A program made the position numbers and the translations under genes. Shown piece by piece: positions 20,093 through 34,184 of a stretch of 64,000 nucleotides of DNA (position 1 is the first letter of the stretch; the number at the start of each line of letters is the position of its first letter). This DNA is from a phage. The stretch lies in the sequence record PZ179880.1; one strand, 5' to 3'. The notes under the pieces were generated by a model. That model saw only the letters and a program-made list of their open reading frames with translations. It searched no databases and was not told the DNA's origin.

Positions 20093-20120
20093 TTTCTGTT
20101 CCTCCGTAGTTGATAGGGTA

Positions 20121-20149
20121 ATAATACCACAGAGGAACAGTCTTGTAAA
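20121..20149 (-). promoter_or_regulatory. sigma70-type early promoter (TTTACA, 17 nt, TATTAT) inside an RBS-sequestering inverted repeat
   Basis: Minus strand GGTTTACAagactgttcctctgtggTATTAT; arms at 20132-20140 and 20096-20104. Confidence 0.45.
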
Positions 20150-20152
20150 CCA

Positions 20153-20467
20153 CTAAAAGAAACTTCTTTCACAATTTTTTCCACTGAACCATGCACTTAC
20201 CGCTTTCTTGGTCTCAGGAGCAGTGTTATCCATAAACCATTCAAAGGCAGCCTTTTTGTGATTCTGGAGGGCTTCTCGGGCTTTAATCTGCTCACGGTCT
20301 ATTAACACTAACATATGAGCCTTTCTTGTCACCATGGGCTTCTTATGATTTTTTGAATACTCCCAGTCATTTGTCCATCGCATTGTCGTTGCGAACTTAA
20401 ATACTGCTTCTTTAATTTTAGTTTCGTAAATTTCACGAGCCTTTGAGTATAACATCATTACCTCCAT
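20153..20467 (-). CDS. Hypothetical protein (104 aa)
   Basis: ORF. Confidence 0.45.
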   Translation of the reverse strand: MEVMMLYSKAREIYETKIKEAVFKFATTMRWTNDWEYSKNHKKPMVTRKAHMLVLIDREQIKAREALQNHKKAAFEWFMDNTAPETKKAVSAWFSGKNCERSFF

Positions 20468-20556
20468 TCACCAGTTTAATTCTAGTTATCTTTTTAATGG
20501 CAGTCCATATAATCTATTTCTGAACTGCCTTTTTGTCATAGAAGTCCTCTTATGAA

Positions 20557-21537
20557 TTATTTCAGAAGAGTAACCTCAGCAATTTCTTCCCAACCGTTTT
20601 TGTCGGTCATAATAAAGTCAGCAAGATAAAGAGCAGTACGCAGTGAAACATTGCGTAAACGATTAACATTAACTTTCATCCATGATAATGCTTTATAAGT
20701 TTCTTCATCAGAAAGACCGCGCTTTTGCATCATGTCAGTTGAAAGAATAACATCTTCAACCCTGACCATAATTTCTTCATTAGTGTGAACACCCAAATCC
20801 AAATAAACCGAGCGGGACACTAATGCTTGTAAATGTGGAGCAAGTTTAGTACCACGGTCTAATTCGCGGTCAATGTCAACGTTTGTGATAAAAACAATCG
20901 TTCCTTTAAATTCAAACTCACGCTCAATGCCTTTTTCTTCTAAGTAAGAAGATGCGGTGCTCCAGCAGACTTTACGGGTCTCTCCAGTGTCCAGAGCAGC
21001 TTTCAGAAGATTAAGAATGTCCATATCAGAGAAAACATCCACATCATCAATCAAAAGGACAGAATTCTCTTCACGATTATTCCAAAGCTGCTCATAAAGA
21101 CCAATACCAGAGATTTTACCATTAATGCTTTTATATTCAATGTATCCAATATCATTTGCTTTATTTAAAGCTTTATCTAAAGAATACGTTTTACCAATAC
21201 CTGCTGCGCCAGAGATAATTAATGAACGAATATTTCCATTAATAATACCATTCGTCATCATTCCCATAACATTAAATCTTTTATTAATGCGGGTTTTCAT
21301 ATCTTCATACGATTCTTTAATTTCTTCAACTTTTACACCATCATATGAAATATCTGATTTGTAAACCCAAACACCGCGACGTTTACCGTCAATTTCAACA
21401 AAAACTTTACCATCTCCTTGTGCATCTACCGGAGCATTATCTGGGAACCATTCGCCTAAGAGCTCAAAAGTTCCAGAGATTTCTTTACCGAAGTAGATAC
21501 CCTTATTGATAGTTACAGTTTTCATTTTATTCTCCAA
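20557..21537 (-). CDS. P-loop AAA-type ATPase (326 aa)
   Basis: Walker A GAAGIGKT and Walker B VLLIDDVD. Confidence 0.6.
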   Translation of the reverse strand: MENKMKTVTINKGIYFGKEISGTFELLGEWFPDNAPVDAQGDGKVFVEIDGKRRGVWVYKSDISYDGVKVEEIKESYEDMKTRINKRFNVMGMMTNGIINGNIRSLIISGAAGIGKTYSLDKALNKANDIGYIEYKSINGKISGIGLYEQLWNNREENSVLLIDDVDVFSDMDILNLLKAALDTGETRKVCWSTASSYLEEKGIEREFEFKGTIVFITNVDIDRELDRGTKLAPHLQALVSRSVYLDLGVHTNEEIMVRVEDVILSTDMMQKRGLSDEETYKALSWMKVNVNRLRNVSLRTALYLADFIMTDKNGWEEIAEVTLLK

Positions 21538-21561
21538 TTTTACATTTGTTTTGATAGGGTA

Positions 21562-21591
21562 ATAGTATCACACTACTACCCTGCTGTAAAC
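21562..21591 (-). promoter_or_regulatory. sigma70-type early promoter with inverted repeat around the -10
   Basis: Minus strand TGTTTACAgcagggtagtagtgtgaTACTAT; inverted-repeat arms 21556-21564 and 21575-21583. Confidence 0.4.
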
Positions 21592-21594
21592 AAT

Positions 21595-21858
21595 TTATTT
21601 TAATGTTTGCCAAATTTTTACTGCTTCGCGACGAGATACTTCTACGGCGCCAAGTTCTATAGCTTTTTGGCGTCGCCGAGCGTGTAAGTCATAATGTTTA
21701 ATGCGTTTATCTTGAAACCAAGAACGTTTCATTCCTATTGCTTCTGCCATTTCATGAAGCTCTTCAATATCTCCATCAGTGAACATATGACAATTTTTAG
21801 TTGGATGACCGCGAAGTTTCCATCCATGATTCATTAAAACATCTACGTAAACTGTCAT
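21595..21858 (-). CDS. Hypothetical protein (87 aa); by recollection resembles DUF4031-type proteins
   Basis: Motifs CHMFTD...EELHEMAEAIGMKRSWFQ...HYDL; family assignment from memory, unverified. Confidence 0.45.
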   Translation of the reverse strand: MTVYVDVLMNHGWKLRGHPTKNCHMFTDGDIEELHEMAEAIGMKRSWFQDKRIKHYDLHARRRQKAIELGAVEVSRREAVKIWQTLK

Positions 21859-22004
21859 TGATTCTGCTCCAAATATGTTTCTATAATTTTCTGAGCGAGA
21901 TAAACTGCATTATCTTCAGTTGCATCTTCTAAGAAACTTTCAAAACACTCTGAAATTTCTTCTGTGTCAATCAACTTTTTTACTTCAATTGGTGTAATTT
22001 TCAT
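21855..22004 (-). CDS. Hypothetical small protein (49 aa from MKITPIEV)
   Basis: The 5' part of the track ORF is occupied by the promoter at 22042-22070, so the start is placed at the next Met. Confidence 0.4.
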   Translation of the reverse strand: MKITPIEVKKLIDTEEISECFESFLEDATEDNAVYLAQKIIETYLEQNQ

Positions 22005-32320: not shown

Positions 32321-32425
32321 TTCTGTATTTACCCATTACCGCACTTGGGCTCGACCTTATTACAGGTTGGCGGGAATCCCTCATAGAATCATGAGGTCCA
32401 GCTTGTTCCCATATTTCTTATTTGC

Positions 32426-32899
32426 TTATTTGAATGATTTGACATACTGAACAGAACCTTTGCTATTCACAAAGGCGATTTTACCATTTTTGTTATACAT
32501 GGTGGCAGTACGCTGATAGCCATAAGTTTGCTTACCAGATTGATAACCAACTAATGCAAAATTATCTTCGCCCATTTTATTCTGCTTAGCGCGGATGCGT
32601 TCATGGCCGTGTGCCATAAGAACCTTAGCATCACCAGTTGCAATGGATCTACGAGTTTTTTCATCTTCAACTGTATTAACAAAATCGTCAAATGAATCAA
32701 ATTTAGCATGGGATTTATTATACAGTTTTCCATCTACTGCATAATTATATCCCTGTACATCCATCTCAACTTCTGTACCATCATCCAATACAGCAGTGAT
32801 TTTTTGACCTTTTTTAAATTTCAAAAGATCAGTAAAAGATTCAGCAATAATTTGAGAATTAATAGCTGCTTCAGTGATAAATTCTTGATATGTTTTCAT
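32426..32899 (-). CDS. Internal-protein-like capsid-targeted protein (157 aa)
   Basis: N-terminal MKTYQEFITEAA is the T4 capsid-targeting sequence shared by IPI/IPII/IPIII. Confidence 0.6.
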   Translation of the reverse strand: MKTYQEFITEAAINSQIIAESFTDLLKFKKGQKITAVLDDGTEVEMDVQGYNYAVDGKLYNKSHAKFDSFDDFVNTVEDEKTRRSIATGDAKVLMAHGHERIRAKQNKMGEDNFALVGYQSGKQTYGYQRTATMYNKNGKIAFVNSKGSVQYVKSFK

Positions 32900-32908
32900 A
32901 TGTTTCCT

Positions 32909-33325
32909 TTAAATGTAAATATTTTTGCCGTAATACTTGTACCAGTGTGGCTTCATTAAAATTTTTTCATCGAGTCGTTGTTGACTCAATTTAATAGCTG
33001 ATTTGCATGGATTATAATCATTTTTCCATTCTGCTGGAATATCGCTGATGTCAGGAACTTCAGTATCTTTTATACTAAACCCACGTTTTAAGCATTCCGT
33101 TATAATGTCTGATTGACGCTTTCGCAAAAATTCTAACTTATCGTAAAAGAACGTAACATGACCAGAACCTAAAATAAACTCGGAAGATATTTTAAAATCT
33201 TTAACCCGCTTACCATTTGCCACGTGTTTACGAACTATACCAAAAACACGTGGCAATTCACGATACTCAGCCATAAGATGTTGGTCGGTCAGTTCAGAAA
33301 CAAGTGTTAAATTGATACGAGTCAT
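32909..33325 (-). CDS. denV: Endonuclease V (pyrimidine-dimer DNA glycosylase DenV, 138 aa)
   Basis: [29 protein letters not shown]... matches T4 endo V closely but not identically; RBS GGAGG before MTRIN. Confidence 0.95.
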
Positions 33326-33328
33326 AAT

Positions 33329-33382
33329 TTCCTCCAAGTAGTTGATGAATGTATAGTATCAAAGTCCTTGGAGGAAGTAAAC
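33329..33382 (-). promoter_or_regulatory. Early promoter (TTTACT...TACTAT) embedded in an inverted repeat that pairs with the denV RBS
   Basis: Arms 33367-33376 and 33329-33338; -10 at 33353-33358, -35 at 33377-33382. Confidence 0.45.
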
Positions 33383-33383
33383 A

Positions 33384-33665
33384 CTATTTTTCTGAAGCGC
33401 CTGAAATATATTTTTCAAGACGTTGTTTCATTAGCGAGCCGTTCTTAGCGATTTCTTCTGGTTTATCGCACATACGCAACAAGGCTTCAAGCTTAACGAT
33501 ATCGCTGGTACGTTCAAATTTGCGAGTATCTATCTTACTAGCAAGTTCAGAAATACGTGCTAATAGACTTTCAGCTTCAACCAAAGCTGCACCTAGCTTA
33601 GTTGCAAATGTGTCAGTAGCTTCGTTAAGAATAGATTCTGATAAAAATTCACTATATGTTTTCAT
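33384..33665 (-). CDS. Internal-protein-like capsid-targeted protein (93 aa from [10 protein letters not shown]; IPII position)
   Basis: Capsid-targeting sequence [10 protein letters not shown]; located between denV and e. Confidence 0.6.
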
Positions 33666-34150
33666 ATATACGCTTTCCAAGTTCCTGTTTTAAATGTTGA
33701 GATTACGCGTTTCGCGCGATTAGGTGTCTGACGATACCATTTAGATTGGGCTAGATTTACTGCTGCTTCATCCCAGCGTTTTTGTTGGAGCATACGTAAA
33801 GAATTAGTAAATCCTGCCACGCCGGTTTCTCCCATTTGAAAAACCATATTAATTAATGCACAGCGGCGAACAGCATCAAGAGAATCATAAACTGGTTTTA
33901 ATTTAGCATTTCTCAGAATTCCGCGAACAGCAGCATCAACATCCTGATTAAAGAGTTTTTCAGCCTCATCTTTTGTAATTACACCATTGCAATTACGCCC
34001 AATAGCTTTATCTAATTCAGATTTGGCAACACTAAGTGATGGACTTTTGGTAAGCAAATGACCAATGCCAATAGTGTAATAGCCTTCTGTGTCTTTATAG
34101 ATTTTAAGTCTAAGACCTTCATCTATACGTAACATTTCAAATATATTCAT
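33662..34150 (-). CDS. e: Endolysin, T4-type lysozyme (162 aa)
   Basis: [38 protein letters not shown]... matches T4 lysozyme with a few substitutions and a 2-aa shorter C-terminus. Confidence 0.95.
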
Positions 34151-34184
34151 AATACCTCCTAAGTATTTATAGAAGGTATTTATA
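34151..34184 (-). promoter_or_regulatory. Two late-promoter motifs (TATAAATA) inside an RBS-sequestering hairpin upstream of e
   Basis: Minus strand tTTATAAATAccttcTATAAATActtAGGAGGTATTatg; AATACCT pairs with AGGTATT covering the Shine-Dalgarno. Confidence 0.6.

Follow-up and report, generated by a model that had tools for sequence, protein, structure and literature searches.

Promoters embedded in Shine-Dalgarno hairpins

The window analysed here is the whole of a 64,000-nucleotide (nt) stretch of phage DNA (sequence record PZ179880.1), which is 96–99% identical to Tequatrovirus genomes, that is, to close relatives of T4. Its minus strand carries e, denV, regB and nrdC.8, all named through comparison with the T4 record, the last being the open reading frame (ORF) at 19565–20092. 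An earlier note, made from the letters of the sequence, had described an inverted repeat upstream of each of these genes that pairs the Shine-Dalgarno (SD) region with an upstream arm, with a promoter embedded in the resulting hairpin, and had called the promoters at the three genes other than e early-type. Direct reading of the minus strand bears out this anatomy at all four genes, and the promoters of denV, regB and nrdC.8 share the form GTTTAC-N18-TACTAT/TATAAT/TATTAT, rather than that of late promoters.

At e (ATG at 34150–34148), the 5' (anti-SD) arm AATACCTTCT (34171–34180) pairs with the 3' arm AGGAGGTATT (34151–34160), which includes the SD, forming a 10 bp stem with one G.U pair. Two late promoters read from the sequence, each TATAAATA (34184–34177 and 34171–34164), overlap the 5' arm and the loop, which is the layout of promoter and hairpin published for T4 (PMC3014915).

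The hairpin at denV (ATG at 33325–33323) is a perfect 10 bp stem between TTCCTCCAAG (33367–33376) and the SD-bearing 3' arm CTTGGAGGAA (33329–33338). Its 5' arm occupies the spacer of an early-type promoter (-35 GTTTAC, 33382–33377; -10 TACTAT, 33358–33353), leaving the -10 in the loop. The transcription start site (TSS), set here and at the other early-type promoters as the seventh nucleotide past the -10, and therefore a prediction, is the A at 33346. The same arrangement is found at regB (ATG at 30220–30218), where a 15 bp stem with two G.U pairs joins the 5' arm TTTTCCTCTTGACTG (30257–30271), again in the promoter spacer, to the 3' arm CAGTTAAGAGGAGAA (30225–30239), which contains both the SD and the GGAG at which RegB cuts its own transcript. 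The -35 GTTTAC (30277–30272) and the TGn-extended -10 TATAAT (30253–30248) flank the 5' arm, the latter within the loop, and transcription is predicted to start with the A at 30241; an early promoter is documented for T4 regB (PMC3014915). At nrdC.8 (ATG at 20092–20090), the stem is likewise of 15 bp with two G.U pairs, between CTGTTCCTCTGTGGT (20126–20140) in the promoter spacer and the SD-bearing ACTACGGAGGAACAG (20096–20110); the -35 GTTTAC is at 20150–20145, the loop has the -10 TATTAT (20126–20121) at its 5' edge, and the A at 20114 is the predicted TSS.

The minimum free energy fold (RNAfold) pairs the SD with spacer sequence at all four sites, and folding z-scores relative to dinucleotide shuffles are -6.1 for e, -5.2 for denV, -4.8 for regB and -5.6 for nrdC.8. 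Every 3' arm contains GGAG or GAGG. The predicted TSSs of denV, regB and nrdC.8 are each the A within a conserved ATCA motif, 2–8 nt ahead of the 3' arm by sequence prediction. The 5' arms begin shortly after the stop codon of the upstream gene, at distances of 6 nt between nudE and e, 7 nt between the ORF at 33384–33680 and denV, 8 nt between vs.3 and regB, and 12 nt between nrdC.9 and nrdC.8. Rfam covariance models matched none of the sites, and gave just two sub-threshold chance matches elsewhere.

Occlusion of the SD relative to other gene starts

Approximately 82 gene starts were called across the window, so as to avoid cherry-picking, and two measures of SD occlusion were calculated for each: the longest SD-covering helix with an upstream partner, and the SD-opening energy, defined as the partition-function free energy cost of freeing the SD within a read-through RNA of 130 nt. 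By helix length, nrdC.8 (15 bp), regB (15 bp) and denV (10 bp) were the top three, against a background mode of 4–6 bp; the helix at e, recorded as 9 bp in the scan, came next after a single AT-rich helix of 12 bp that has four G.U pairs. The SD-opening energies in read-through RNA were 14.8 kcal/mol for nrdC.8, 13.9 for e, 12.8 for regB and 10.3 for denV, compared with a window median of 2.5 (n=82), such that these genes hold four of the six highest values.

The other two of these six were a spurious 38-aa ORF and a leader hairpin at 12989–13026 on the minus strand, which buries an SD at a cost of 10.9 kcal/mol and has a late-promoter-like AATAAATA in its 5' arm. The gene starting at 12988 is identified by the N-terminal sequence of its product as that for endonuclease VII (gene 49). 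Gene 49 is listed among the known cases of SD sequestration (PMC3014915); it is a fifth instance in the window, unlisted in the earlier note, and acts as a positive control.

Further high scorers were set aside. The spurious ORF (54527) is within a bidirectional terminator. The pairing at 45258/45306 is trivial, involving the divergent late genes 4 and 53, which have mutually complementary SDs; this intergenic region (45258–45306) has two TATAAATA boxes and an apparent SD hairpin on both strands. Gene 55 (7685) owes its high opening energy to long-range folding, and its promoter arrangement shows no clear logic. On the plus strand upstream of gene 9 (54520–54576), the terminator GGGAGCCCATGGGCTCCC with its T-run is followed directly by TATAAATA, and the SD of gene 9 falls within a weak AT-rich helix of 9 bp (TTTCTTTAT/ATAAGGAAA), with an opening energy of only 2.9 kcal/mol, making it a marginal candidate for the late-promoter class.

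Predicted dependence of SD accessibility on transcript origin

Comparing the folding of read-through and promoter-initiated 5' untranslated regions, as the earlier note had proposed, revealed differences in SD-opening energy of about 8–14 kcal/mol. RNAs beginning at the predicted TSSs do not include the 5' arm, and opening their SDs requires only 2.1 kcal/mol for denV, 1.8 for regB and 1.3 for nrdC.8; the corresponding range for the late-promoter transcripts of e is 0.3–2.6 kcal/mol.

From 36000 to 19000, the minus strand has sites resembling intrinsic terminators only at 26098–26081 and 22120–22101, and a weak example at 34913–34899. The four stems all lack a following U-tract, and none was called by the terminator scan; instead, they are succeeded by A-rich sequence and the ATG. 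With no intrinsic terminator ahead of the embedded promoters or at the stems themselves, RNA begun further upstream is expected to read across all four sites.

Conservation and covariation among relatives

Loci encoding relatives of RegB, DenV and NrdC.8 were taken from IMG/VR. At denV, 27 of the 28 distinct T4-type upstream regions need 7.4–16.5 kcal/mol to open the SD in read-through RNA, and those with a confidently called promoter need 0.4–2.8 kcal/mol when the transcript is promoter-initiated. This pattern of high read-through and low promoter-initiated energies recurs in all six regB relatives and in six of the seven nrdC.8 relatives, across about 20 distinct arm pairs at denV, five at regB and six at nrdC.8. 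Two geometries are apparent. In the first, the spacer between the -35 and -10 contains the anti-SD, and the loop contains the -10; in the second, found in some denV relatives, the anti-SD overlaps the -10 or discriminator, and the loop is short and lacks the -10. Either way, nearly all of the partners of the SD are upstream of the predicted TSS.

The arms change together. At denV, T4 has TCTCCTGTAG/CTACAGGAGA where the window has TTCCTCCAAG/CTTGGAGGAA, both sides differing with complementarity kept. Three sequence families of regB keep a 12–15 bp stem with the arms CTTGACTG/CAGTTAAG, CTAGTTG/CAACTAG and TGTAAG/CTTACA, and RNAalifold identified compensatory pairs in the regB set. The same approach, applied to 13 denV leaders aligned with MAFFT, returned no structure, an alignment artefact in which the SD arms were placed out of register. 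An ungapped-helix comparison of cognate arms excluded the sequence near the SD, and hence missed the short-loop geometry; opening energies were used instead, alongside a covariation count anchored on the CUCC:GGAG core, in which cognate and non-cognate combinations of 29 distinct arm windows were compared. The five inner positions flanking the core pair in 97, 90, 90, 93 and 79% of cognate combinations, relative to 41–52% of non-cognate combinations, and each flanking position has 4–6 pair types among the 29 arm windows. The helices need 36 G.U pairs when read on the sense strand, against 13 A.C pairs, with totals of 435 and 330 bp respectively. Hence the wobble pairs point to a structure of the sense RNA, rather than a feature of the DNA or antisense strand.

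The promoter-leader cassettes of denV differ between T4, the window phage and the IMG/VR relatives, one of which (L013) has an ipIII-like cassette. In the window, the interval between e and denV (33384–34150) contains one 98-aa ORF, where the T4 counterpart (65416–66997) contains ipIII and ipII, and both arms of the denV cassette differ from those of T4; the ORF and the altered cassette fit the exchange of cassettes that has been described at the internal-protein locus. The jumbo-phage denV relatives (L033, L035, L036 and L045) have a different arrangement, without SD gating. Some 60–100 nt upstream of the ATG, these have a terminator hairpin, AAAAGGGTTGAC-loop-GTCAGCCCTTTTT, with the -35 TTGAC in its stem; a T-run follows the hairpin, and then TATAAT, forming a compact overlap of terminator and promoter.

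Recurrence across the T4 genome

The SD-opening energy was also calculated for all 267 annotated gene starts in positions 1–168000 of T4 (AF158101), for which the median was 2.0 kcal/mol and the 95th percentile 9.3 kcal/mol. The published late-promoter cases, e, I-TevI, 49, segB and I-TevII, are at the top of this ranking. Early gating was defined as an early-type promoter within 75 nt, combined with a high read-through and a low promoter-initiated energy, and eight genes with early promoters were classified as gated: nrdC.8, modB (13130), regB, motB.2 (8161), alt.-3 (123032), denV, 30.8 (130253) and e.8 (70623); alc (136275) was slightly under the cut-off. Gated starts were thus found at 8 of 47 genes proximal to an early promoter and at 9 of the remaining 220 (Fisher p=0.0036). 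The anatomy is the same as in the window and its relatives: motB.2, alt.-3, alc and 30.8 have a spacer anti-SD, and modB a discriminator one. The same duplicated promoter-hairpin cassette is present at alt.-3 and alc.

Transcript origin as a proposed switch for translation

These statistically exceptional hairpins, conserved with covarying arms in set positions relative to promoter elements, lead us to infer, with a probability of roughly 0.6, that each acts in cis as an RNA switch whose state depends on the origin of the transcript; the start sites, the read-through RNA and the effect on translation are the predicted parts of this model. Probably only the transcripts begun at the embedded promoter are translated at e, denV, regB and nrdC.8. 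The key feature would be the position of the anti-SD upstream of the embedded TSS, within the -35/-10 spacer in the window, and at the -10 or discriminator in some relatives. Transcripts initiated further upstream would hold both arms, and the 5' arm, being made first, would trap the SD as it emerged, blocking 30S binding. Those from the embedded promoter would start about 2–8 nt before the 3' arm, and, in the absence of the 5' arm, leave the SD open. The model is drawn by analogy from e, whose hairpin is known to cut the translation of long transcripts about 100-fold (PMC3014915).

The consequences would depend on the class of promoter. At e, with its late promoters, lysozyme is held back until late in infection, as is already known. 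At regB, denV and nrdC.8, the early sigma-70-type promoters would produce the reverse outcome, with the immediate-early transcript of the gene itself as the sole source of protein. The dose would then be set by one promoter, insulating the gene from the additive read-through of strong upstream promoters. RegB cuts GGAG in the SDs of early mRNAs, its own efficiently, is inhibited by secondary structure, and is itself transcribed from an early promoter that is shut off within 2–3 min (PMC3014915, PMC1702504). Synthesis would stop when the early promoter is shut off or, in the case of regB, when RegB cuts the now-open SD. The access of RegB to GGAG on read-through RNA is probably blocked too, because structure inhibits the enzyme, which cuts its own SD when this is open.

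The earlier note had proposed such gating by transcript origin, and had cited its establishment for T4 lysozyme with a late promoter, which is correct (PMC3014915). The anatomy, energetics and conservation all favour its proposal; what it missed was the wider context, in which hairpins are common at the early promoters of these phages, and many of them do not include the SD.

Alternative explanations

Several considerations weigh against the switch model. Firstly, the TSSs on which it depends are predictions; we found neither 5'-end mapping nor translation measurements for denV, regB or nrdC.8 in accessible sources. Secondly, with loops of 15–28 nt, the helices are kinetically less certain than the thermodynamic figures suggest, and a ribosome terminating at the nearby upstream stop codon (6–12 nt) could transiently loosen the stem. 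Thirdly, one lineage of nrdC.8 orthologs (L095/L098) has swapped to a hairpin that does not include the SD. Fourthly, when the 47 T4 early-promoter leaders were folded from the -35 to the ATG, hairpins straddling the -10 and TSS were common, and approximately ten strong examples have the -10 hexamer as their loop and end 5–6 nt before the SD. These non-SD hairpins in T4 include those of dmd, mobD.2, motB, ipI, ipII, cd.2, e.7 and trna.4, and related structures therefore have a function that is independent of the SD.

Similar non-SD hairpins are present on the minus strand of the window, at the promoters at 41213–41184, about 40919–40890 (gene start 40861), 37021–36992 and 25274–25245. Each has its 5' arm in the spacer of an early promoter and its 3' arm directly past the -10, a few nucleotides short of the SD, with arms such as GATGAGGTA/TACCTCATC, AGATAGGGTA/TACCCTATCT and GGGCTCAT/ATGAGCC. 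Relative to the T4 mobD.2 promoter, that at 25274–25230 has two A-to-G changes in its 5' arm (GTTGACAAGATTAT to GTTGGCAAGGTTAT), which its 15-bp stem survives only as G.U pairs in the sense RNA, suggesting that selection at the RNA level acts on this non-SD class as well.

The non-SD hairpins of the window and T4 correspond to the published promoter-early stem-loop (PeSL) elements of T4-type phages, which consist of an early promoter, a stem-loop between or over its -35 and -10 boxes, and an SD and ATG (PMC2839356, PMC4122927). These have been read as terminators or attenuators and as recombination sites, with the SD given as a separate 3' component, and one stem-loop from RB49 terminated transcription in a reporter (PMC2839356, PMC4122927). 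The sites at denV, regB and nrdC.8 have the same constituents, a sigma-70-like early promoter, an overlapping or adjacent stem-loop, and an SD and ATG, with the distinction that the SD is itself the 3' arm. They might accordingly be ordinary PeSLs, serving to end or attenuate transcription from upstream, to stabilise the upstream mRNA at its 3' end, or as recombination sites for the shuffling of cassettes, the SD falling within the stem since the leaders are short. The abundance of strong hairpins off the SD, at many T4 early promoters and the four in the window, would fit this explanation, as would the changed hairpin of L095/L098 and the variation in denV cassettes between phages, as if these had been exchanged. 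We nevertheless consider it unlikely. The stems have no U-tract and none was called terminator-like, although a stem might attenuate transcription even so. With leaders of the same length (8–13 nt from TSS to SD), some hairpins capture the SD and others stop 5–6 nt short of it, hence capture is not an automatic outcome. At denV, some 20 variants of the arms retain SD capture, as do both geometries, including that with the -10 outside the loop. The denV arms of both the window and T4, with loops of 23–28 nt, skip the sequence adjacent to the -10 and land on the SD, as do those of nrdC.8, less markedly, with a loop of 15 nt; that the arms bypass this sequence indicates that the SD, and not the -10, is their target. 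The contrast between leaders of equal length, the two geometries of denV and the landing of arms on the SD together argue that SD capture has been selected in its own right. Given that hairpins both with and without SD capture occur at T4 early promoters, the placement of a promoter in a hairpin appears to be general, with SD capture a gene-specific subset.

It is less probable still that the hairpins primarily hide GGAG from RegB on long polycistronic RNA, protecting downstream cistrons from decay, with the block to translation as a side effect. RegB does cut the GGAG of SDs and is easily inhibited by structure (PMC3014915, PMC1702504), and GGAG or GAGG is present in every 3' arm, yet the SD of T4 denV is resistant to RegB by virtue of its sequence, even when unstructured (PMC1702504), which would make shielding redundant. 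Furthermore, most GGAG SDs in early operons are unshielded, and e, gene 49 and I-TevI share the device with a demonstrated role in translation.

Translational coupling, in which ribosomes ending the upstream gene would melt the 5' arm, such that translation of read-through RNA depended on that of the upstream cistron, is suggested by the position of the upstream stop codons 6–12 nt ahead of the 5' arms, but seems very improbable. The 5' arm is entirely downstream of the stop codon, in the spacer, where a terminating ribosome could touch it with its edge at most; e has the same spacing, yet its long transcripts are translated about 100-fold less (PMC3014915); and coupling leaves unexplained why the anti-SD is upstream of the TSS in both geometries. 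Finally, the inverted repeats also exist in the DNA, and similar sequences recur owing to the strong conservation of T4 early promoters across about 60 bp. An origin by chance, or at the level of DNA as, for example, a cruciform, a palindrome bound by protein or a side product of the promoter consensus, is nevertheless largely refuted by z-scores around -5 at sites that are the top outliers among 82 gene starts in the window and 267 in T4, by arms that are outside the promoter consensus and differ between orthologs while remaining complementary, and by G.U wobble pairs that form only on the sense RNA strand.

Implications and comparison with known systems

The switch model extends, more tentatively, to a regulon-wide code of translational insulation in T4-type phages, in which an anti-SD just upstream of the TSS in about one-sixth of early promoter cassettes may ensure a gene is translated solely from its own immediate-early transcript. 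Such a code would fix a brief dose of dosage-sensitive proteins, including RegB, ModB, Alc, DenV and others; it would act together with cleavage by RegB and, possibly, Rho polarity on untranslated read-through RNA; and it would enable promoter-gene cassettes to move between genomic contexts with their output unchanged.

T4 is a reference system for phage gene regulation, in which the accepted role of ribosome-binding-site hairpins around internal promoters is to delay late proteins. If the switch model is correct, the same device is used in the opposite temporal sense, limiting some early proteins, RegB among them, to a short pulse from their own promoters, and shielding them from the read-through of strong upstream promoters. 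This would help explain how separate gene doses are achieved in dense early operons with many tandem strong promoters, and how some GGAG sites escape RegB on long transcripts, as well as giving a role to at least a subset of PeSL stem-loops. The arrangement would also represent a compact, portable insulator design for synthetic operons. It can be tested in reporters, because the -10 is in the loop, where it can be mutated without touching the arms.

The mechanism has a precedent outside phages. Davis, Simons and Kleckner reportedly described in 1985 the 'fold-back inhibition' of transposase translation on transcripts from promoters external to IS10/Tn10. There too, a sigma-70 promoter is within an inverted repeat, and only RNA initiated outside contains both arms, occluding the ribosome-binding site and insulating the gene. 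However, IS10 is reportedly a single instance in a transposon, rather than a device that recurs across a viral early regulon, and is not known to be linked to a temporal class of promoter or to an SD-specific RNase.

The likeness to PeSLs is in the early promoter with an AT-rich upstream region, the stem-loop between or over the -35 and -10 boxes and the SD and ATG on its 3' side, in addition to a location in variable early regions and what may be cassette-like exchange between related phages. The sites differ from those PeSLs described (Arbiol et al. 2010; Comeau et al. 2014) in that the 3' arm is the SD itself, that there is no U-tract, and that orthologs conserve the capture of the SD rather than the position of the stem relative to the -10.

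The closest comparison is with the hairpins of T4 late genes (e, soc, 49 and I-TevI, as well as I-TevII, I-TevIII, segB and mobE of Aeh1), in which the SD, the AUG or both are buried on long transcripts, as here, and the promoter is placed such that its own transcript does not include the 5' arm, as is also the case here by predicted TSS. Two of the window's genes, e and gene 49, are themselves members of this class, and these are textbook cases. The genes known for such regulation 'are all late genes' (Edgell et al.; PMC2988022), and a difference in translation between long and promoter-proximal transcripts has been published only for e and I-TevI (PMC3014915). Hairpin gating of regB, denV or nrdC.8 is not described in the accessible literature, which does not extend to older T4 reviews, where we put the chance that individual hairpins were noted at about 25–30%: a 2010 review gives only late-promoter cases, Durand et al. 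treat the GGAG of denV as unstructured, and the PeSL papers make no mention of SD pairing (PMC2839356, PMC4122927). Hence the early-promoter version is apparently undescribed. The combination of late promoter and late gene is found at e, with its two TATAAATA boxes, but not at denV, regB or nrdC.8, where the promoter is of the early sigma-70 type, GTTTAC-N18-TAnnnT, and the anti-SD is in the spacer between the -35 and -10. Whereas the late-gene hairpins delay synthesis until late in infection, those of denV, regB and nrdC.8 are predicted to restrict it to early infection, and to the transcript of the gene's own promoter.

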